Origin: Mytilus trossulus
Lineage: Eukaryota
Length of the DNA stretch: 64,000 nt
Assembly: GCF_036588685.1 (NCBI RefSeq)
Contig: NC_086373.1
Span: forward strand, 62,868,001 to 62,932,000
Direction: 5' to 3'
Shown piece after piece: positions 7,640 to 37,290 of this stretch (position 1 is its first letter; each line of letters starts with the position of its first letter). The position numbers were made by a program, and so were the translations under genes. The notes under the pieces are model-generated. The model searched no databases, had not been told where the DNA came from, and was given only the letters and a program-made list of their open reading frames with translations.

Positions 7640-10600
7640 ATGATGCACCAGAGAAGCTTAATTTATATTTCATTATTAATTTGTTCTTTACTATATATCG
7701 TAAAGAGTAAAGACGAGAACGACATAAATTTTGCAAGCAAACAAAGTGGATATGAAAAAGCAGACGACGCTTGGGACGAAGATGAGGATGACAAAAGTGA
7801 AGAAGATGTCGAAGAGGATGCCAAAGATGCAGATATGAAAGAGCAAGTTAAAAGAGACAATAATGGGAATTTTTACAGCTTTACAGTGCTTGATTCAGAA
7901 GGAAAGGGTGTTGACTTGGGGCAATACAAGGGAAAGGTAAGGTATCATTGTTGACATGTAATTGTTGAATTAAATGTACCTAGCATTACTAGGTTACCTT
8001 CTTTAAATAAGGGATTTTTATTTTATTATTATTATTATTTATGGTACACACAATACCATACCATACATAACGGTAAACCTCTATTAGGTTTTACCATGCA
8101 CTGTCTATTGAGCATTTGTCCACAGGAGTTTGAAATCCTATCAATAACGGAGTAAAAATATACCAAACTCGACTATCACAGTAGAGCTTCGCTCGCCAAC
8201 TCATCTATCACAGTAGACATGGTAGAGCTTCTCAAGTTTGAAATCCTATCAATAACAGGGTAAAATTATACCAAACTCTACTATCACAGTAGAGCTTCAC
8301 TTGCCAACTCATCTATCACAGTAGAGCTTCTTTTGTCGAAGAGAAGTTCTTCTGTGATAGTCTAGTTTGGTATATTTTTACCCCGTTATTGATAGGATTT
8401 CAAACTCCTGTGATTTGTCAGGCATTCAAGACACAGCAATCCTGTTATTTATATAATAAAGTAGTGCTTATAACATGTATAACGTGTATAATCGGTTCAT
8501 ACAGTGGAGATTGTATTGACCACTAAGCTCAGATTCTCAAGCTGTGGCATACTTTGCAAGAGTTTGATTTGTGGATGGCACATGTACAGTGTCACTGTCA
8601 GAGGTACATGTAGTTTTGGTGTACTGAGTTATTTTAATACATTATTTCAAGAGGCCAACTTACAGTTTTAACAATAAACAAGCTGCTATTGCAAGTTTCA
8701 AGTCTACATCACAGGGAGTCTATACTGTTTAACAAATTGTGAAAACATTTAGCTGGTACATGTACAAAATATCAAACATTTGCCACTGGACATTAATGAA
8801 ATATCCTCTTCCTCAAATGAGAAGAAAATCAAGATATACTCAAAGACAATTACTCTAATACAAGGCTTCTTCCAGTTACTTTGGACAAACACAATCCAAT
8901 GACTTTGTTTGAAACCGTTTTGAAATGTACATCCCAGATATGCATTTGAAATTTTCTTGGTGTTAAGACGAGTAATTATAACACTCTTTAATTTCCCTGT
9001 TTCAAGTTTTGTCTGGAATATTATATGAACATGTACATATATACAAATACATGTATTTAACACCACAATCCAATAGACCACTTTCGAGTTCATCCGTCAC
9101 CTGCAAAAACTAGTCAATTATGCACGCCTTTATGACGTCATTTACCAGATAGAGGGGCTCGCCTGTATCCCTGCACTATTTACGTTCATCAAGCGTCTTA
9201 GTGATCGTCTTTGTGCAGGATAAACTAGAAATAACCGTTGCTATGTAGGTACTTACTGACAATTCTCTATTGACAGCAGAGTTGATTGTCTATTTTCAGA
9301 ATTCAATTTGCCGAATAATTTGTACAATATAGAATTATAATTTTCCAACCACTCGCTCAACATTGGAAGGGAAGTGACGACGCCCCTAAACACACAGATG
9401 ACGGTGATAAAGGCGCGTATAATTGACGATTTTTTTCCGGTGACGGATGAACTCGAAAGTGGTCTATTAGAATGGAGACAATACATGTAGACTTGAAAAC
9501 CACCAAATTTTACAATGACAGTTGCTTACTTAAAACTTGTAAAATTCGTTATTTTATATTTGATTTTTCCTTATTTGATAAAGCTACATGAAAATATTAT
9601 TTATATTTTTAAGATAACATTGGTTGTTAATGTTGCATCAGAATGTGGATATACTGATAACCATTACAAAGCACTATCAAAGATACATAACCATTTAGTT
9701 ACAACTGGACGATTTTCAGTATTAGCCTTCCCATGCAACCAGTTTGGAAAACAAGAGCCAGGGGTAAGTACATATTTGCCTCTTAGTGTATAATTGACAG
9801 TAATATAGTTAAAAAAAGAGGTTGCTTTTCATGGTCGAATTTGTTGTTGCCATATACATTGATATATACCATACATCATGAAATTGTACAAAAAATGATG
9901 GTGGTGCAATAGACTATTTTGATTAAGTGGTGTTGTTAAACTAAAAAAGTTCAGGGCAATTCTATTCTGTGAACATTTCTTTTGGAAATTCTTTAAAAAG
10001 TTGAACTTAAATTTCCTTCTTGACAATTGGAGAGATAATTTTATAATTCTGATTGTATGACCAATGCTATACTAAGGACATCTGCATAAAGCAAGTCTTA
10101 TGAATTATGCTGATTAATTTGTAGATGATTGAATATAACAACTTTTGAATTATACATTAATGCAATAGGCACTTCTAGTAAGTTTGAAAATATCCTATTT
10201 TAAAGCAATGGAAAAAAAATACATACAAATAGCAACTTATTAAAATTTAAAGGAACTTTAAAAATCTTTTAAAAATCAATGAATGTCTGTCACCATACCA
10301 ACCATTTAATAACACTACAGGCTTCTGTTCATTTGAAACTCATATTTCCAGTTGAAATTTAGTGGCAGATCCAGAACTTTTCAAAAGGGGGGTGGGTGGG
10401 GGTTGATTGACCTAAAGGGGGGGGGGGGGGCTGGATCCACCTTGTTGTTAATTTTTGTGTCATTTTGGTCACTTGTGGACAGTTGTCTGCTTGGCAATCA
10501 TACCACATCTTCTTTTTTTATATTGAATCTACTTTTGAATTTATAAGGGCCAAACTTGGTTTCTAGATTACTTTATGGTTGTAAATTTGTTTTTCCTGGA

Positions 10601-12481
10601 CATCACTGTTACAATCTGTATATAAACAATAAATATATAATGAAACAATATTTAGACTTTTCATTCACTATATATATTAGTTACTACTTTGTTACAAACA
10701 TTATCAATATTGTTAGACAGTCCTCTCAGGGAATAACTGTGTCATGAAATCAATAGTTTACATTTTTGGTTTGATGTGGCATATTTTTATTATGATGAGT
10801 TGTATATGTGGACAATCATACCACATCATCAAATATAAAATGTATTTCATAAAGGTGTGCATGAACTGTATTGATTCACATGATTTATAGAAATGAGTAT
10901 TGTTAACTTGACTTCTTAGACAAACAAAATTTACACAATCTGGACAAGACACCACCAGATGTTACAGTCAATACGTTCTATAAAAATATGTTGTAATATA
11001 GTATTATTTATCAATGATTTTATCATAAAAGGCCATTGATTGATATTGAGTGGCTTAGAATTTTAATTCCCATTTCATAGAATCATTTAACGTTATACAG
11101 ACTAGGTTTAACTCATTTGCTTTCCAAGAACTAGTACAAATTGAAATGAATGGAATTGGAAAATATAAAAAAGAAGATGTGATAAAGTCTCTTTTAAAAA
11201 TAATAATGTAACAATTGATTGGTACATTAAAGGTCACAGAGACATGCAGTTAGTTAGGAGAATTTCATGAAAAGACAGAAAAGAAAAAAAAAGTACATTG
11301 TCCTTCAAAAAATATATACTGTTAATCCAATAGTTTTCTATAAAGGGTCAAAACAGAGTTCTTTACAGGAATAAATTTCAAAAAAATTTGTTTGGAATAT
11401 TTTGTTTTACAATGTATATAGTCTAGTTAAATTTTGGTTTGTTCAGCAAATCATAATTGTTCCCTGGGCTAAATTTAGGCATCTATGCCAGCTCTAGGTA
11501 GTCTTGAAGTAACAGTATAGAAGGTTGTACAATCAGCTAAAGTGAGATTATCTTATAGTTTGTTGAATATACATGTACAAGAAACAGTAGAAATACTTAG
11601 TTCAGACAAGTGCTTGAATATTTTTATCTTTTGTAATTAAAATATTGTTAGTCAACCATTTCATCTGTCTTTTTTCGTTTAATATTTATAAATTCCTTTT
11701 TTGCAGACTAATGCAGAAATCCAAAAATTTGCCAAGGATAGATACAGGGCTAAATTTCCTGTATTTGGAAAAGTTAATGTTATTGAAAGTGATGTATCAC
11801 CAGCATGGCAGTATTTAATAGGTAAGCAGAAAAAAATATCACCTTGGATAACTTAATTTTATATCAGAAATGGAGACTCAAGTTTCCCCCATGCTACCTC
11901 ATTCAATGTTTAAGGTTCCAGCTTGAAAGCAATTGTAATGGAACATTTATATTTATGAACCAGGAAAAAAAAACGCAGTTGGTTTCTGGTGTTATCTGTT
12001 TGTCGGTATTCAACAATGAGAAAACCCCATACTAAAAAGTTGCCTATATAAGGCCTGACATGAAAAATATGAAATAATTCAATTGAGAAAACCAACGGCC
12101 TAATTAATAACAAAACAGTTTACTAAAAAGAAAGATAACACATGAACCTAAGACAACCACTTGTCTTTTTGATTGAATCGTTTACTTGAAGATTAGTAAC
12201 AATTATCTTATGGATTCAGAGACAAAAGTTTTATACCACAAGTATTTCAGAACTAAAGAGTCATTAATTTGAATGAGTTGATATATTTTTTAATTTAAAA
12301 CATTTTCTCTCTCACAGATGAAACTGGTGAAGCTCCTTCCTGGAATTTCTTTAAATATCTTGTCAATGAGAATGGTGATGTACTGCATGCTTGGGGAGCT
12401 TGGACATCTGTGGATGAAATCTATTCAGTAGTACAACAAGCAGTGACAAATGCAATGAGAAGACCAAAAACTGAACTGTAA
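7640..12481 (+). CDS. GPX7: Glutathione peroxidase 7/8-like (Cys-type, ER-resident), 241 aa
   Basis: Exons 7640-7936, 9614-9763, 11707-11821 and 12318-12481 are GT/AG and in phase. The protein has an N-terminal hydrophobic signal, the GPx motifs VVNVASECG, LAFPCNQFG and WNFFKYLV, and a C-terminal KTEL. The active-site codon is TGT (Cys), not TGA. Confidence 0.93.
8121..8412. mobile_element. MITE with ~60-bp terminal inverted repeats and a 7-bp target-site duplication
   Basis: Termini CACAGGAGTTTGAAATCCTATCAATAAC...GTTATTGATAGGATTTCAAACTCCTGTG, with ATTTGTC on both flanks. The left arm is partly duplicated internally. Confidence 0.85.
9072..9468. mobile_element. MITE with 30-bp TIRs
   Basis: AATAGACCACTTTCGAGTTCATCCGTCACC at 9072, with its reverse complement ending at 9468. 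Confidence 0.85.
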
Positions 12482-21279: not shown

Positions 21280-21381
21280 GTGATCTAAAGATCAGTTTTT
21301 TGTCGGTTATTCTAATCCATTACCCTATTGTGTAGTTTCGTAATGAACCGTCATACTGACAATTCTCAATCTTAAGATCAC
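21280..21381 (-). promoter_or_regulatory. SECIS element 2 (SELENOP 3'UTR)
   Basis: On the minus strand, the outer helices are GTGATCT/AGATCAC and TGTC/GACA. The core is ATGAC (21354-21350) ... AGAA, helix II is GGTTCATTAC/GTAATGGATT, and the apical AAA precedes a CTA..TAG mini-stem. Confidence 0.88.
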
Positions 21382-21461: not shown

Positions 21462-21559
21462 CGAGTTCACGGTTTAATCTGTTCAGCAGTCAGTCATCAA
21501 AATATCGTTCAAGCGTTTCATTTTGAAGCGTCATCATTAACAATTAAACGGTGAACTCG
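21462..21559 (-). promoter_or_regulatory. SECIS element 1 (SELENOP 3'UTR)
   Basis: On the minus strand, helix I is CGAGTTCAC..GTTTAA / TTAAAC..GTGAACTCG. The core is ATGAC (21534-21530) ... TGAC, helix II is TCAAAATG/TATTTTGA, and the apical AAA is followed by a mini-stem. Confidence 0.85.
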
Positions 21560-21646: not shown

Positions 21647-24600
21647 TTACGAAAGCATGTGACTGTTCTGTCATCGTCAAGCCTGTGAATCATGGTGTCA
21701 AAGTCAAATACCATGTCCGTCATTTTCATTACGTCAATGGCACGCGCCTACTTGTCACTGACATCTTGTCTGTCAAGGTCAAAGCTGTCCATCCTGACGA
21801 CTCTCCTCTCATGTTTGTCCTGATGAAGTCAAGCCTTGTCATTGTCAGTCATTACCAACAGTGAGACATTGTCAAGTTCTGGTTGACCTACGACCAGAAC
21901 TAGGTCAAGAACAAACGTCTGCCTCGTAATGTTGTCCTGAACAGTGTCAGTTCAAAGATGGTCCCTCGCTATGTCACTGGCATCTCCTCTGACATCTTCA
22001 TGAAGGAGAACTACTTCTTGGACTGGTTCATTGGCATTGTTCTTCGTGACTCATGGTTGTTTGTCATTGTCAGCGTTCGTCTGATTGGTGACTTTGTCAT
22101 CGTATTTCAGCAGAGACAGTTTCACCAATTGGTCAGTTTCATGTAAGTTCTCCACTGTCTGAAGTTATGCATTGTCACATGCAGTTCCCAGATAAATGGT
22201 CTCACTGTCATGTCTTCGTTCCAGATTCGCTGTTTTGTCAGCGTCAAGGACTTGAAGTGCTCTTTGTTGAACATTGTCAAGGTCCGGAACTTTGTGATCA
22301 ATTGCATACTTGCTGGTTTGGTCACTGTCAGCTAACGTTATCACCCTCCGTCTGTCACGAGCATGTATCGTCTGTTTGAGGTCATGAACATATCTGAACA
22401 CCAGTCTCTTCAGTTAGTCACTGTCATGATGGGTTGGCTGATATATCCAAGGGTCACCTACAAGTAGCAGATGAGTTGGTTGCATGAAAATCACAAGGTC
22501 AGTCAGTCAAAAATTCTCAATTAGGTCTAGCAATTTCACTATGTAAAGAGTGACGTCTCAAAAATGAATCTCAGTTTAATCATACACATTCTTGAACAAC
22601 AGTCAAATTGAGCTCTTCACAAGAGCACAAGCCTAGTCTTTCAGGGAAAAACGCTTGTCTACAAGCACAGTTATTTTCTAGATCTGATGAAACGGAAGGA
22701 CAAACTCATGCGCGTCTGTTTCTTTGATTTTTATAATGTTTTTTCATAAAATTTCATAATTTTCTAATTACTTTATGCGTGGGTATTGGACGGTTTCATC
22801 TATTTCTAATTCAATTTGGTGTACGATTCATGTCTCGTACTGCTGATCTTCCCATTCCTACGACAATGGCGCTACCTCCAGATCTATGACTATGCGGACG
22901 TTCGTGGTTGTGTCTTCTACGACGTCGGTGTGATCTACGTAAACTGCGTTGACATCCGCATGGATCTGTATCGTATGCAGTACGGATTGCCCAATCTGTA
23001 AGATGGTAACGCAACAAGCTTGATGGAAATGGTATAAAGTAAACTAATTTGCCGCATCTGTGAACGAAAAAAGACTATATGTTTGGCTTTATAAGCGTAC
23101 GTATTGCATCCCTGCTGCATACCATTGTGCAAAGATTTAATAAGATATATATACATTATCGTTGCTATGTTCGCACACATTTCACTGTTACAAAATAAGT
23201 ATAACAAAGAGCTCCAACAATGATCAATTTAAATTGCAAGTAAATTTATATTGAATGTCATTAATCCTGATTATAACTTCATTGAATAGTAGTAATTGTT
23301 TTCTTAATTTTCTCGTTTAACGTTTATGCTCAGTTCAATAGCTATTTAACTATAGGAATCTTAAATATGTCCTCTGGTTGGATTGTCTTTTAGTAGCTCA
23401 CAATGCATCTATATTATAAATTGCTATGATTTATATGTTTTTTTAAAATTTTAAATGTACAGGAACCTGATATTCAGTGGTTGTCGTCTGTTAATGTGAT
23501 CCTTAAATGTTCTTGTTTCTCGGTTTTTCTATAGATTATACCATTGGTTTCCCGTTTGAATGGTTTTCCACTGGTAATTTTTGGGGCCTTTATTTCTTGT
23601 CTTCTATGAGAGCCATGGCTCCTTGTCGAAGACCTATATATTGGTTAACATTTTTACAAATTGTGACTTGGATAGAGAGTTGTCCCATTGGCACTCATAC
23701 TATATCTATATGATATAATATTGCAATATTTTTTCAATTCTTACAAATTGTGACTTGGATAGAGAGTTGTTCCATTGACGCTCATACTACATCTTCATTT
23801 ATCTATATGATAATATTGCAATATCTTATCAATTCTTACCTATCATATATCAATACGTCATCTTTTCCGCCATTTAGTTTATTCCATATGTTTGTAGTGC
23901 TTGTATCTTGGTACACAGGAAAGTTAGCTCTACTGGAAAGTTGTCCAATTTGTTCAGGAACTTCTTTGGAATTTACAATCATAAAACTGATTTCTGTACG
24001 GCCATGGGCGATGTATTCTTGACGAATAGTCTCAAGCCTACATTGTACACACATTAATTTATTTGAAGTAGTTTTAACAAATAAAGACGAATGAAAGGAG
24101 GGGATTAATTACACAGAGTACTAATTTCCTAAATACCTTTTTTTTGTATTTTTTCCCCAGTTTATTATCCCAGATACGATTCATTTTAACTCCTATCGAG
24201 CTGCCTAATCATGGAATCCCACTATAACCTACATCTCAAACTCGTATTTGATCTTACGAGTATTTGATACAATAATGTGATATAAGAAGTATAGGCATTT
24301 TTTCATTAATTAATAAAATCTTAAATCTAAAATTATCCAGACATAAACGTTTTTTTTTACTTTCAGACTGTTCATAGTTAATCATTTGAAATCTGTTGAA
24401 TGTGAAATGTGAAGAAAAGGAATAAGACAAATTCAAATATTACAAATTTGCAGTATTTGATTATAAACACAATCAATTTAAGTAAAGGAATTGATATTTT
24501 CAAATCCTTTCCCATACATGAGGATGTGGATGGGGGGTTTACAGAATACAAAATATTGGACAAAAAATAAAAGGTGTAAAAAAATAAACTTAATAGACGA

Positions 24601-24867
24601 AAATGCTTTACACGTATAACACCATTCACTATAGCAATCCGTAAATATTCATCTAATAAATGATAACACATACCCTGCCGCTTGTTGCTGACACATGGGT
24701 CATGTAGCCAGCAGTAGTGACACTACTGTTACTTTGCCACGCGTGTCCAGCATCGGCTGATCTCCACTGGGGGTTCGCCAGGTTGGTGGATCCTGACAGA
24801 ACCTTCCAGATACGCTGACAAGTAAAGCAGCAGCGAGCAACCCGGTCAACATACCGGGGCTCCTCAT
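21647..24867 (-). CDS. SELENOP: Selenoprotein P, 600 aa, with 45 in-frame UGA (Sec) codons
   Basis: Coding exons 24867-24674, 24037-23840 and 23057-21647 are GT/AG with phases 2/2 and total 1803 nt. The protein has a signal peptide, then FCQDPPTW..DQPMLDTRGKVTVVSLLLAT-U-PMC (UxxC, TGA at 24702-24700) and IWNKLNGGKDDVLIYDRCGKLVY, collinear with the vertebrate SelP_N domain. An Arg/His-rich linker follows, then 44 more TGA codons with no TAA/TAG until the TAA at 21649-21647. Two SECIS elements lie downstream. Confidence 0.97.
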
Positions 24868-28102: not shown

Positions 28103-29461
28103 TACGGGGCGCCGAATGGGACTCTTGTGGTTTTGTACAAAATTCAATTCTGTCATAACAAAATCATTTTTGTCTTACAAAACTATGTGCTACAGACTTG
28201 TTTTGTGAGAACTTCAATTTTGTGATGACAAAATTCATTTGTGTAGACAAAATTCATTTTTGTCATGACAAAATTCATTTTTGTAGACAAAATTCATTTT
28301 TGTAGACAAAATTCATTTTTGTAGACAAAATTCATTTTTGTAGACAAAATTCATTTTTGTAGACAAAATTCATATTTGTCATGACAAAAGTCAATTTTGT
28401 CTAAAAGGTATGCAAATATAAACATATTTGCATACAAAATTGACTTTTGTTACCTGATATGGAAATTAAATCACAAAAGTCAATTGTGTGAGGTAAGATT
28501 CAATTTTGTGAGACAAAATTGACTTTTGTGAGACAAAATTGACTTTTGTGAGACAAAATTAAATTTTGTGAGACAAAATTCAATTTCGTTGAGACAAAAG
28601 TCAATTTTGTCAATTTTGTTGAGACAAAAATCGATTTTGTCAATTTTGTTGAGACAAAAGTCAATTTTGTTAATTTTGTTGAGACAAAGTCAATTTTGTC
28701 AATTTTGTAGAGACAAAAAGTCAATTTTGTGATGACAAAATTCATTTTTGTGACGACAAAATTCAATTTTGTAACAAAAAAATTTACTTTTATGAGACAA
28801 AATTGACTTTCGTGAGACAAAATTGACTTTCGTGAGACAAAATTGACTTTCGTGAGACAAAAATCAATTTTGTTGAGACAAAATTCAATTTTGTTGAGAC
28901 AAAATTCAATTTTGTCAATTTTGTTGAGACAAAAGTCAATTTTGTCAATTTTGTTGAGACAAAAGTCAATTTTGTCAATTTTGTTGAGACAAAATTCAAT
29001 TTTGTCAATTTTGTTGAAACAAAAGTCAATTTTGTTGATCACATTGGTCAATTTTGTCAATTTTGTTGAGACAAAAGTCAATTTTGTCAATTTTGTCTCA
29101 CAAAAGTCAATTTTGTCAATTTTGTCTCACAAAAGTCAATTTTGTGTAACAAAAGTCGATTTTGTATGCAAATTAGTTCACAGAAACCGAACTATACTAA
29201 TTTGAATACAAAATTGACTTTTGTCGCCCAATTTTCAAATTAGGTAACAAAAGTCAAGTCTGTGTAACAAAAATGAATTTTGTCATGACAAAAGTGATTT
29301 TTGTCCGCTGATATATAATTTTGTATGACAAAATTTTAAATTTGTAGTATGATACAAATTTTGTTAAACTGAACTCATTTTTGTTGAACAAAAGTCACTT
29401 TTGTCCGTACAAAATTGAATTTTGAGTACAAAATCACAAGAGTCCCATTCGGCGCCCCGTA
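28103..29461. mobile_element. Foldback-like non-autonomous DNA transposon with internal GACAAAA/TTTTGTC satellite-like repeats (copy 1)
   Basis: TIR TACGGGGCGCCGAATGGGACTCTTGTG / CACAAGAGTCCCATTCGGCGCCCCGTA, with GAATT on both flanks. The interior is made of 20-29-bp quasi-palindromic units. Confidence 0.85.
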
Positions 29462-31185
29462 GAATTTGGACCCAAAACAAAACTGCATGCAGGTAAACTG
29501 AACTTTCCGAATTTTAATTTGACAAACGCATTCCAATTATTAAGATGTTGCAAGATCGTGGTATATATTTTGATTAGCATGTGTAAGTATATGAACATAT
29601 TATATTCCTGTGTTGAAATTGATATTAGACCCCTAAAATATTCAAAGGCTACATATGCGAAACATATACGTACGATGGCGTGAAAACTTTTCAATTTATC
29701 AGATATGAATTTGCAGAGTTGCAAAACACGTGTAAATAAGATAACATTAAACAACGCACACACGATCGTGACATTACTTCGATGAATTCATACGAAGAGA
29801 CAAATGACAAATTGACTTAATCTTGACAAAAAATAGTTACAGACCCAAGTCTGTTGTAATTACTTTATACAGCATGGAATGGAGCTGTATACTTCGCATA
29901 CTTAATGTATCAATAATGCCTATAGTTAAATGATCGTAAGGTTACATCATAAACTCATCATAGATACCAGAATTGAACTTTTGTATTTAAGACAGACACG
30001 TATTTCATCTACGAAACACTCATCAGTAACGCTCGAATCAAAATTTTCTAAAAAGGCCAAATAAGTACGAAGTTGAAGAGCAATAAAGACTTAAAATTAC
30101 TTATAGTTAGCAAAGGTACCAGGATTATAATTTAGTATGCCAGACGCGCGTTTCATCAACATAAGACTCATCAGTGACGCTCAACTCAAAATATTTATAA
30201 AACCAAACAAGTTCAAAATTGAAGAGCATTGAGGTTCCAAAATTCCAAAAAGTTGTGCCAAATACGGCTAAGTTAATCTATGCTTGGGATAAGAAAATTC
30301 TTAGTTTTTCGAAAAATTCAAAGTTTTGTAAACAGGAAATTTATAAAAATGACCATATCAATTATAACTCGTGTCGACACAGAAGTGCTGACAATTATCA
30401 TATTAGAGAATTGTAGGTGGGCGTACAGTTTAATTATGATTTGAATATACTTTTAACCCAAAAATGTGGTATTCTCTTCCCTAGGAGGATTCGAACTCAA
30501 GCTGTTCAGACACACGACAACTGTACTGTGTCCATAGACTAAGACAATGTCCTCGATCAACAGAGCTGTATAAAAGATGGTGGGTTAATCTATATGGATG
30601 AGACACACTACATGGTCCATCGTTATTCGGGTTATATGCCTTTCCTCGTCTACTTACAGGATACAGTGATATAGAGTGGCATGGACGGGCACATAGGTGC
30701 AGTTAATTTTTATTGCAATTAACACTGAGTACATTGTATATTCTTATTGCTCTGATTTTATTTCGAATATAATTACATCAGTGCATCTAATACGTAAACA
30801 AACCGTGACGTAAACAAACAAATTCATGTAAAAAAGTAAAATATCTCTACTAAATCATTTATGAATTTATGTATTTTTCTCACGTGAGGTGTGCATGTAT
30901 ATAGGTCATCCAATGAACTCCAGTCTGTTCTTAGAATAGAAAATAAGTAAATGTTATACGGTCGTCATACGAAAGAATAACTTAGATAGAAGAAGAAAAT
31001 GGTTGCAGTCGTCTGTATAGTTGATCCATTTTCTTGGCAATGCATACAGAACCCAAACCTTTGTTTTCTGTGGTATTTGATAGGCAAGTAATATGGCAGT
31101 TGTTATCAAATACAACAATGTAGCTCGTTTCCATGTATTTTGGCGTTTGTTTCTGTTGCACTTCAGTGATTCTGTTGTTCCCCCT

Positions 31186-32030
31186 TGTGAGACAAAATTC
31201 AATTTCGTTGAGACAAAAGTCAATTTTGTCAATTTTGTTGAGACAAAATCGATTTTGTCAATTTTGTTGAGACAAAAGTCAATTTTGTTAATTTTGTTGA
31301 GACAAAAGTCAATTTTGTCAATTTTGTAGAGACAAAAAGTCAATTTTGTGATGACAAAATTCATTTTTGTGACTAAAAAATTCAATTTTGTAACAAAAAA
31401 ATTTACTTTTATGAGACAAAATTGACTTTCGTGAGACAAAAATCAATTTTGTTGAGACAAAATTCAATTTTGTCAATTTTGTTGAGACAAAAGTCAATTT
31501 TGTCAATTTTGTTGAGACAAAAGTCAATTTTGTCAATTTTGTTGTGACAAAATTCAATTTTGTCAATTTTGTTGAAACAAAAGTCAATTTTGTCTCACAT
31601 TGGTCAATTTTGTCTCACAAAAATCAATTTTGTTGATCACATTGGTCAATTTTGTCAATTTTGTTGAGACAAAAGTCAATTTTGTCAATTTTGTCTCACA
31701 AAAGTCAATTTTGTGTAACAAAAGTCGATTTTGTATGCAAATTAGTTCACAGAAACCGAACTATACTAATTTGAATACAAAATTGACTTTTGTCGCCCAA
31801 TTTTCAAATTAGATAACAAAAGTCAAGTCTGTGTAACAAAAATGAATTTTGTCATGACAAAAGTGACTTTTGTCCGCTGATATATAATTTTGTATGACAA
31901 AATTTTAAATTTGTAGTATGATACAAATTTTGTTAAACTGAACTCATTTTTGTTGAACAAAAGTCACTTTTGTCCGTACAAAATTGAATTTTGAGTACAA
32001 AATCACAAGAGTCCCATTCGGCGCCCCGTA
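31186..32030. mobile_element. Same element, copy 2 (left end deleted)
   Basis: The right TIR ends at 32030. The left TIR is missing because of the unit-2 deletion. Confidence 0.8.
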
Positions 32031-33926: not shown

Positions 33927-35239
33927 TACGGGGCGCCGAATGGGACTCTTGTGGTTTTGTACAAAATTCAATTCTGTCATAACAAAATCATTTTTGTCTT
34001 ACAAAACTATGTGCTACAGACTTGTTTTGTGAGAACTTCAATTTTGTGATGACAAAATTCATTTGTGTAGACAAAATTCATTTTTGTCATGACAAAATTC
34101 ATTTTTGTAGACAAAATTCCTTTTTGTAGACAAAATTCATTTTTGTAGACAAAATTCATATTTGTCATGACAAAAGTCAATTTTGTCTAAAAGGTATGCA
34201 AATATAAACATATTTGCATACAAAATTGACTTTTGTTACCTGATATGGAAATTAAATCACAAAAGTCAATTGTGTGAGGTAAGATTCAATTTTGTGAGAC
34301 AAAATTGACTTATGTGAGACAAAATTGACTTTTGTGAGACAAAATTCAATTTTGTGAGACAAAATTAAATTTTGTGAGACAAAATTCAATTTCGTTGAGA
34401 CAAAAGTCAATTTTGTCAATTTTGTTGAGACAAAATCGATTTTGTCAATTTTGTTGAGAGAAAAGTCAATTTTGTTAATTTTGTTGAGACAAAAGTCAAT
34501 TTTGTCAATTTTGTAGAGACAAAAAGTCAATTTTGTAGAGACAAAAAGTCAATTTTGTGATGACAAAATTCATTTTTGTGACGACAAAATTCAATTTTGT
34601 AACAAAAAAATTTACTTTTATGAGACAAAATTGACTTTCGTGAGACAAAAATCAATTTTGTTGAGACAAAATTCAATTTTGTCAATTTTGTTGAGACAAA
34701 AGTCAATTTTGTCAATTTTGTTGAGACAAAAGTCAATTTTGTCAATTTTGTTGTGACAAAATTCAATTTTGTCAATTTTGTTGAAACAAAAGTCAATTTT
34801 GTCTCACATTGGTCAATTTTGTCTCACAAAAATCAATTTTGTTGATCACATTGGTCAATTTTGTCAATTTTGTTGAGACAAAAGTCAATTTTGTCAATTT
34901 TGTCTCACAAAAGTCAATTTTGTGTAACAAAAGTCGATTTTGTATGCAAATTAGTTCACAGAAACCGAACTATACTAATTTGAATACAAAATTGACTTTT
35001 GTCGCCCAATTTTCAAATTAGATAACAAAAGTCAAGTCTGTGTAACAAAAATGAATTTTGTCATGACAAAAGTGACTTTTGTCCGCTGAAATATAATTTT
35101 GTATGACAAAATTTTAAATTTGTAGTATGATACAAATTTTGTTAAACTGAACTCATTTTTGTTGAACAAAAGTCACTTTTGTCCGTACAAAATTGAATTT
35201 TGAGTACAAAATCACAAGAGTCCCATTCGGCGCCCCGTA
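33927..35239. mobile_element. Same element, copy 3 (complete)
   Basis: Both TIRs and both GAATT flanks are present. Confidence 0.85.
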
Positions 35240-37290
35240 GAATTTGGACCCAAAACAAAACTGCATGCAGGTAAACTGAACTTTCCGAATTTTAATTTGA
35301 CAAACGCATTCCAATTATTAAGATGTTGCAAGATCGTGGTATATATTTTGATTAGCATGTGTATGTATATGAACATATTATATTCCTGTGTTGAAATTGA
35401 TATTAGACCCCCAAAATATTCAAAGGCTACATATGCGAAACATATACGTACGATGGCGTGAAAACTTTTCAATTTATCAGATATGAATTTGCAGAGTTGC
35501 TAAACACGTGTAAATAAGATAACATTAAACAACGCACACACGATCGTGACATTACTTCGATGAATTCATACTAAGAGACAAATGACAAATTGACTTAATC
35601 TTGACAAAAAATAGTTACAGACCCAAGTCTGTTGTAATTACTTTATACATCATGGAATGGAGCTGTATACTTCGCATACTTAATGTATCAATAGTGCCTA
35701 TAGTTATTAAATGATCGTAAGGTCACATCATAAACTCATCATAGATACCAGAATTAAACTTTTGTATTTAAGACAGACACGTATTTCATTTACGAAACAC
35801 TCACCAGTAACGCTCGAATCAAAATTTGCTAAAAAGGCCAAATAAGTACGAAGTTGAAGAGCAATAAAGGCTTAAAATTACTAGTAGTTAGCAAAGGTAC
35901 CAGGATTATGATTTAGTACGCCAGACGCGCGTTTCATCAACATAAGACTCATCAGTGACGCTCAACTCAAAATATTTATAAAACCAAACAAGTTCAAAGT
36001 TGAAGAGCATTGAGGATCCAAAATTCCAAAAAGTTGTGCCAAATACGGCTAAGTTAATCTATGCTTGGGATAAGAAAATTATTAGTTTTTCGAAAAAATC
36101 AAAGTTTTGTAAACAGGAAATTTATAAAAATGACCATATCAATTATAACTCGTGTCGACACAGAAGTGCTGACAACTATCATATTAGAGAATTGTAGGTG
36201 GGCGTACAGTTTAATTATGATTTTATAGATACTTTTAACCCAAAAATGTAGTAATCTCTTCCCTAGGGGGATTCGAATTCAAGCTGTTCAGACACATACG
36301 ACAACTGTACTGTGTCCAACGACTAAGACAGTGTTCTCGATCAACAGAGCCATACAAAAGATGTTGGGTTAATCTATGGATGAGACACACTACATGGTCC
36401 TTCGTTATTCGGGTAATGCCTTTCCTCGTCGACTTACAGGATACAGTGATATACAGTGGCATGGACGGGTACATTAGTGCAGTTAATTGCAATTAACACT
36501 GAGTACATTGTATATTCTTATTGCTCTGATTTTATGTCGAATATAATTACATCAGTGCATCTAATACGTAAACAAACCATGACGTAAACAGACTAATTCT
36601 TGTAAAAAAGTAAAATATCTCTACTAAATCATTTATGAATTTATGTATTTTTCTCACGTGAGGTGTGCATGTATATAGGTCATGCAATGAACTCCAGTCT
36701 GTTCTTAGAATAGAAAATTAGTAAATGTTATACGGTCGTCATACGAAAGAAGAACTTAGATAGAAGAAGAAAATGGTGTACAGTCGTCTGTATAGTTGAT
36801 CCATTTTATTGGCAATGCATACAGAACCCAAACCTTTGTTTTCTGTGGTATTTGATACCAAGAATTGGCCAGAAAAGTCATAGTAATTGAAGATAGAAAG
36901 CATAAGCGACAAACTATATCTGGAGTAAATATGAAGTACTTGTATCCCAAAGAAAAATAAACAGGTTACAACGTAAATAACTTTGGCAACACTTGAACCA
37001 GCCATGTGAATTCAATCAAAGACTTTGTATATAGAATCTTTCCAGACACTTTGGTGATATTGTTTGCGGACAAACATTGATGTCTTTTTGTGAATCTAAC
37101 AATTGAAATGTGATAAAGAAGGACATCATCTATAAAGACTAATTTAATTAGTTAACCACAGAACGATAAGCTGATGATTCCTGTGTGTTGAAATGCTCAT
37201 CCATCCTATATAAATATAATATATTATAGGTAAAATAAACATTTAATGACGGATCTTCATCAGAACACACTTACAATTACGTACATAATT

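Follow-up and report, generated by a model that had tools for sequence, protein, structure and literature searches.

The closest described relatives of the gene analyzed here are the multi-Sec SELENOP molecules of molluscs, metazoan proteins that share with it an N-terminal domain with a UxxC motif, a basic and His-rich linker, tens of UGA codons and a 3' SECIS; at the level of the family, the mussel gene does not differ from them. The base that follows the stop codon (+4) is said to have been linked to termination in selenoproteins in a context paper of 1995 and in later reviews. Ribosome profiling of mollusc SELENOP in the oyster by Baclaocos et al. 2019 (J Mol Biol 431:4381) reportedly revealed about 5% passage at UGA1 and nearly 100% passage distally. 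Multi-UGA mollusc SELENOP and the +4 effect were already known, and since they were, the finding presented here refines a known mechanism.

Sec residues number up to 133 in bivalve SELENOP (PMC8744743). How ribosomes get through tens of UGAs, and why certain UGAs are sites of truncation, is discussed mostly with reference to SECIS elements, RNA structures and the reprogramming of ribosomes (PMC5727441; PMC5133445). Studies of stop codon readthrough establish that UGAC is the leakiest four-base stop and that purines at +4 stabilise eRF1 binding (Wangen and Green 2020 PMC7089771; Cridge 2018 PMC5829715; Dabrowski 2015 PMC4615788), and bases adjoining Sec codons influence recoding (PMC8704476 section 2.1.2). 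The mussel gene shares with UGA-C readthrough the same base, the same position and the same expected competition with eRF1, and 16 of its 37 distal UGAs are followed by CAR, resembling the CAA found after leaky stops in viruses and yeast. Unlike readthrough systems, it repeats UGA-C 31 times serially in one frame, with a cognate Sec-tRNA. A full-text literature search, the coverage of which excluded the main mollusc and classic context papers, found no description of +4 patterning along SELENOP.

The minus strand of the window (the whole stretch of 64,000 nucleotides of Mytilus trossulus DNA that was analyzed) carries a locus that, judged from its sequence, is a three-exon SELENOP gene, and the +4 pattern sits in its last coding exon. 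Its features are the following:

24674..24867, minus strand: SELENOP coding exon 1, with the ATG, a hydrophobic N-terminus (by eye) and the UxxC motif
24702-24700, minus strand: UGA1, in exon 1, in the motif U-P-M-C; the next codon is CCC, i.e. UGA-C
23840..24037, minus strand: SELENOP coding exon 2, SelP_N domain, Pfam PF04592 match
21647..23057, minus strand: coding part of SELENOP exon 3, with the SelP_N end, an Arg/His-rich linker and 44 in-frame TGA
22516..22813, minus strand: proximal block, UGA2-UGA8, with +4 bases A,A,A,G,T,G,G and 34% GC; sites kept as Sec or Cys in orthologues
21668..22501, minus strand: distal block, UGA9-UGA45, with 31/37 UGA-C, 16 UGA-CAR and 45% GC; Sec/Cys-x-Sec/Cys dyads
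21740..21742, minus strand: Cys codon TGC, for which the second copy of the locus (G000:C27) has TGA; the next codon is CAT
21649-21647, minus strand: TAA stop of SELENOP, in the same frame as the 44 TGA
21479..21543, minus strand: probable first SECIS, a weak Rfam SECIS_1 match (15.3 bits, E 2.2) with an AUGA...AAA...GA layout by eye
21300..21362, minus strand: SECIS element, matched by Rfam RF00031 at 34.7 bits (E 3.6e-4; gathering score 35)

Exon borders were taken from GT/AG sites, and the three exons joined in phase yield 600 codons with 45 TGA. A Pfam search placed PF04592 above cut-off on exons 1 and 2, and exon 2 matched at 100% a segment of the protein labelled Mytilus trossulus selenoprotein P-like. 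The splice between exons 2 and 3 was confirmed by loose ends at that point in contigs of three of the four sequencing runs compared. The tail frame, followed from 23057, holds no TGG. From the family, the SECIS elements and the interchange of Sec and Cys we infer that the in-frame UGAs encode Sec. A second copy of the gene on contig C27 differs from the window copy by 15 substitutions over 1421 bases and is probably the other haplotype. This copy (L002) has 46 UGAs, the extra TGA replacing the Cys codon at 21742-21740, a site that already had C after it.

An earlier note on this DNA had described a polarised stop-codon context, in which proximal UGAs avoid C at +4 and distal UGAs are almost always followed by it. 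Both of its counts were exact. The bases after UGA2 to UGA8 (at 22813, 22798, 22756, 22708, 22582, 22573 and 22519) are, in order, A,A,A,G,T,G,G, none of them C, and a recount over 22501 to 21673 returned UGA-C at 31 of the 37 UGAs from UGA9 to UGA45. The codons after the six distal exceptions are TCA, GAC, AAC, ACC, AGA and GAG, and these exceptions are not accounted for by the spacing of UGAs (gaps of 2-12). The last eight UGAs are all UGA-C. UGA-CUA occurs a single time in the distal block with A as the next base, and the CUAG motif is absent. Background rates of C-start among other codons are 18/90 in the proximal and 39/210 in the distal block, and of 2928 TGA window-wide, 619 have C as the next base. 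One side of the described polarity is weaker than the other: the distal enrichment is upheld, whereas 0/7 fits a 20% background (p ~0.21, 0.8^7) and does not demonstrate avoidance. Since the proximal count is unremarkable at the background rate, the signal is the distal enrichment.

When contexts were shuffled and the best boundary was sought in each trial, the observed split was reached in 15 of 100000 trials, and in 96 of 100000 when UGA1 (TGA-C) was added. This bears on the reading of the pattern as an artefact of chance or base composition in a single sequence. The boundary between UGA8 and UGA9 was picked after seeing the data, and other NGA codons of the distal block are also somewhat followed by C (6/13), which counts against UGA specificity as well. 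However, the p value corrected for the choice of change point is 1.5e-4, out-of-frame TGA in the SELENOP tail precedes C in only 6 of 20 cases, and the pattern recurs in 8/8 orthologues. Together these refute a chance origin of the distal enrichment, and we find the artefact reading hardly credible.

Other comparisons within the window tie the bias to UGA. In the distal block, C follows 31/37 UGAs but only 6/16 Cys codons (p 0.002). Cys at the first position of dyads is not equally C-biased (4/10, against 14/16 for UGA), which answers a check proposed in the earlier note. Outside dyads, a C-start codon comes after UGA in 17 of 21 cases and before UGA in 5 of 17 (p 0.003). A further proposed check, on whether Arg and Leu prefer C-start synonymous codons after Sec, gave a borderline outcome: C-start codons were used in 5/6 cases after distal UGAs and in 14/40 at other positions of the tail (p 0.036). 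In three deiodinase genes of this genome, C-start codons make up 60/110 of the Arg/Leu codons; against that baseline 5/6 is not significant, which makes the synonymous test weak. Overall, the distal +4 C bias behaves like an mRNA signal, being stronger at UGA than at Cys and present on the 3' side only. Folding of 44 windows of the single sequence showed no enrichment of 3' stem-loops of the SRE type and no difference between the blocks (mean folding z -0.37 proximal, -0.41 distal), and the same windows held no compensating stem-loops behind proximal UGAs.

Protein searches recovered eight full or nearly full orthologues translated with TGA as W, with identities ranging from ~91% to ~30%. P0010 shares its cluster with a Saccostrea protein, and P0004 closely resembles one from Mytilus coruscus. 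Full-length forms of relatives were seen only as accidental code-4 translations; public annotations of the P0002, P0003 and P0046 genes are cut at UGAs or shifted to another frame, and that of P0003 runs on in an alternative frame of exon 3. P0004 also has W at the column of the Cys codon at 21742-21740. The mussel exception UGA17 (22300-22295), which is UGA-UCA (Ser), is W-Pro, and hence UGA-C, in close relatives such as P0018-P0021, and its column is W-Gln, W-His or W-Pro in most of the distant relatives. Contigs of the four sequencing runs compared showed variants of relatives. Two scans of metagenome contigs for orthologue DNA gave 135 pattern hits with none confirmed, and then none.

Orthologue tests were therefore tests at the protein level, in which W stands for TGA and TGG alike and the codons of R, L and S are ambiguous. 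Because every codon for Gln, Pro and His begins with C, Q/P/H served as a proxy for +4 C, with Arg and Leu left ambiguous. The polarity, the absence of which in orthologues would have spoken against the interpretation in the earlier note, was kept in 8/8 of them. In the distal region of the eight orthologues Q/P/H follows W in 211/290, Cys in 40/121 and other residues in 178/1401 cases, with W exceeding Cys in each of the eight. The proximal rates are 3/41, 9/63 and 105/670, respectively. Outside dyads, Q/P/H comes after W in 117/147 and before W in 10/149 cases, and the middle residues of dyads track the residue upstream (WxW 65/96, WxC 29/47, CxW 12/45, CxC 5/13). At 39 columns that switch between W and C, Q/P/H follows W in 140/194 and C in 38/108 cases (Mantel-Haenszel OR 3.8), and three lineage pairings at such columns favored W by 14:4, 16:0 and 15:3. 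A model with column and lineage effects gave an OR of 3.6 (bootstrap p 0.003), which fell to 2.5 (p 0.078) when R and L were scored as C-start. P0014 was left out of the 39-column tests, since its tail aligns poorly, but was kept in the counts of follow rates, asymmetry and dyads. Kinship among lineages means that the pooled orthologue counts overstate independence.

Not all of these data point to UGA alone. Distal Cys sites are also enriched over background (40/121 versus 178/1401), which argues against a purely UGA-specific reading. Replacements of Gln stay within the C-start set in 31/53 cases after Cys and 40/64 after W, a comparison that fails to distinguish Sec from Cys. Of the 114 distinct states that follow distal W, 40 are Gln, the most frequent residue, and 11 are Ser, which leads the non-C followers at the protein level. 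Were these Ser residues specified by UCN codons, the context would be UGA-U, and the rule may then be one of pyrimidines and not strictly of C.

An account at the level of the protein would have the distal tail grow by duplication of a unit resembling Sec-Gln-Sec-Pro that was retained for structure or binding, making +4 C a by-product and the polarity a domain boundary. The abundance of Gln among followers and the partial enrichment of Cys sites for Q/P/H agree with such a history, as do the shift in GC at the boundary (34% to 45%), the visibly tandem-repeated tail of P0014 and a structure model that passes from helix-containing to all-strand near residue 184. The model is a hint only, with a mean pLDDT of 41, and because of this low value it was not used for fold search. 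The account is confronted with the fact that only the 3' neighbor is biased, though both neighbors of a residue in a strand face the same way. Moreover, dyad middles depend on the first residue being Sec, the bias tracks Sec/Cys switches within columns and persists at ~30% protein identity, and Gln, His, Pro and Arg have little chemistry in common. We consider the protein-level history quite improbable as the main cause.

Our preferred explanation, which we hold to be probably correct, is that C at the +4 position of distal UGAs reflects selection for the weakest termination context, which would let Sec insertion outcompete eRF1 at successive UGAs. The contrast between UGA and Cys and the polarity of orthologues support the proposal of the earlier note that the distal run is optimised for read-through. 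The ribosome would face 44 such contests in exon 3, and small gains per codon would multiply. With some 37 serial distal decisions, compounding gains could push the first base of the next codon to C, which would be fixed wherever the protein tolerates Gln, His, Pro, Arg or Leu as the next residue. Selection of this kind would explain why these chemically unlike residues dominate after Sec, and likely helps make the Sec-Gln/His/Pro motifs of the tail. Two considerations temper this explanation. A pure cost model predicts the strongest optimisation at proximal UGAs, and this is not observed. In addition, Pro, His, Arg and Leu codons are one-base neighbors of Gln codons, so that descent from a Gln repeat keeps some C for free. 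Nevertheless, the distal bias is real and conserved, and likely an optimisation at the mRNA level.

The +4 base neither guarantees nor forbids recoding. This follows from other selenoprotein genes of the same genome, in which the base is set by active-site residues: exons of Sec-type GPx have UGA-G in 5/5 inspected, and deiodinases have UGA-C in 5/5 inspected.

The earlier note had also suggested that UGA2-UGA8 may be tuned checkpoints prone to termination, giving short isoforms when Se is scarce, and the counts lend this suggestion no clear support. Contexts in the proximal block match background, UGA1 is itself UGA-C, and GPx genes read UGA-G. The residues that follow UGA5 to UGA8 are conserved (V/M/I/L, L/F/Y and mostly D/E), and such conservation of hydrophobic, aromatic or acidic residues makes protein constraint a sufficient explanation of their contexts. 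Most simply, UGA2-UGA8 would be un-optimised, with UGA5-UGA8 likely under protein constraint and UGA2-UGA4 at background, and any greater proneness to drop-off would be a side effect and not necessarily a matter of design. The reading of proximal UGAs as recent gains that have not yet been optimised was ruled out, as nearly every orthologue has W or C there; it is also countered by the standard-code products of relatives (P0005, P0012, P0034, P0041, P0044 and P0046), which stop right before these UGAs.

A narrower version retains part of the checkpoint proposal. Here the distal UGA-C run would serve processivity, while UGA2-UGA4 would be actively kept as strong stops that release an N-terminal thioredoxin-fold isoform, and would do so more often with Sec-tRNA in short supply. 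At the columns of UGA2 and UGA4 the next residue varies (F,I,N,R,T,V and D,K,N,R,S, respectively) but is never Q/P/H, and Q/P/H accounts for 0/13 distinct states at UGA2-UGA4, far from the distal regime. That figure is nonetheless not significantly below background (p ~0.11, 0.843^13), and neither are the 0/7 of the window against 18/90 or the 3/34 distinct proximal states of pooled orthologues (p 0.20). In two orthologues H, Q or P does follow a proximal W.

Vertebrate SELENOP provides evidence on both sides of this narrower version. The +4 bases of UGA1-10, taken by eye from the supplement of PMC5727441, are U,G,C,C,C,C,A,A,A,A in rat and U,G,C,C,C,C,A,G,A,C in mouse; tree shrew and mole have UGA2-G and then mostly C. 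UGA2 is accordingly UGA-G in all four of these mammals, and in the Damaraland mole-rat it is likewise non-C, being UGA-U (PMC5727441 supplement). In 15 fish records, Sec2 is followed by V/A/G/T in 12 and by L in 3, Sec3 by K in 15 and Sec4 by Q in 15. Rat plasma truncations occur at UGA 2, 3 and 7, with +4 bases G, C and A, that is, at two purine sites and one C site, and UGA4-6, all followed by C, are not among the listed truncation sites (PMC5133445). The rat isoforms (PMC5133445, PMC5727441) thus resemble the mussel gene in having a first tail UGA in purine context followed by a UGA-C run; the measured truncation is that of rat. Rodent C-terminal UGAs return to purine contexts, unlike the last eight of the mussel. 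Against a role for strong stops, rat UGA3 is UGA-C and truncates anyway, the known bottleneck in mammals is UGA1 (PMC5727441; PMC5133445), which is UGA-C in this mussel, and the function of the rat truncations is unknown according to their authors (PMC5133445). A deliberate early-stop programme in mussel SELENOP is possible, and we judge the two-part version described above to be unlikely.

A broader conjecture would extend from mussel to fish and rodents. In SELENOP mRNAs, the +4 base would act as a positional termination code, with strong stops at the first tail UGAs setting the share of a short thioredoxin-domain isoform, the UGA-C run producing the processive tail, and the Sec-Gln/His/Pro/Arg motifs being largely a footprint of termination selection rather than of protein selection. 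We offer this generalization tentatively and regard it as rather doubtful. A gene with 45 UGAs does provide enough sites to detect selection on one base, and the results suggest that the immediate context of each stop aids processivity and has a part in shaping the sequence of the SELENOP protein.

A pattern search of the genome for a second multi-UGA gene returned mostly repeats (3/10 retrieved loci inspected), and a search with PF10262 gave no match. Other TGA-rich frames of the window were rejected as coding, since they are satellite DNA with many TGA in several frames. This AT-rich and nearly self-complementary satellite lies at ~28200-29400, 31000-31300 and 34200-35300, in a segment that is repeated several times. 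Elsewhere in the genome, two near-identical pairs of intronless-looking Sec deiodinase genes lie ~150 kb apart at G000:C8:12.57-12.73 Mb (L007-L010), and a further Sec deiodinase gene is located on C2. Upstream of SELENOP, a Type I hammerhead ribozyme match (25088-25045, minus strand; 28.5 bits, below the gathering score of 34) lies ~180 bases from the start codon in a repeat that recurs in the window, and is probably the remnant of a retroelement. On the plus strand, a Cys-type glutathione peroxidase gene (9611-9766 and ~12250-12450) that is GPx7/8-like, with an active-site Cys and a C-terminal KTEL, converges on SELENOP, and the same pair is present on contig C27.
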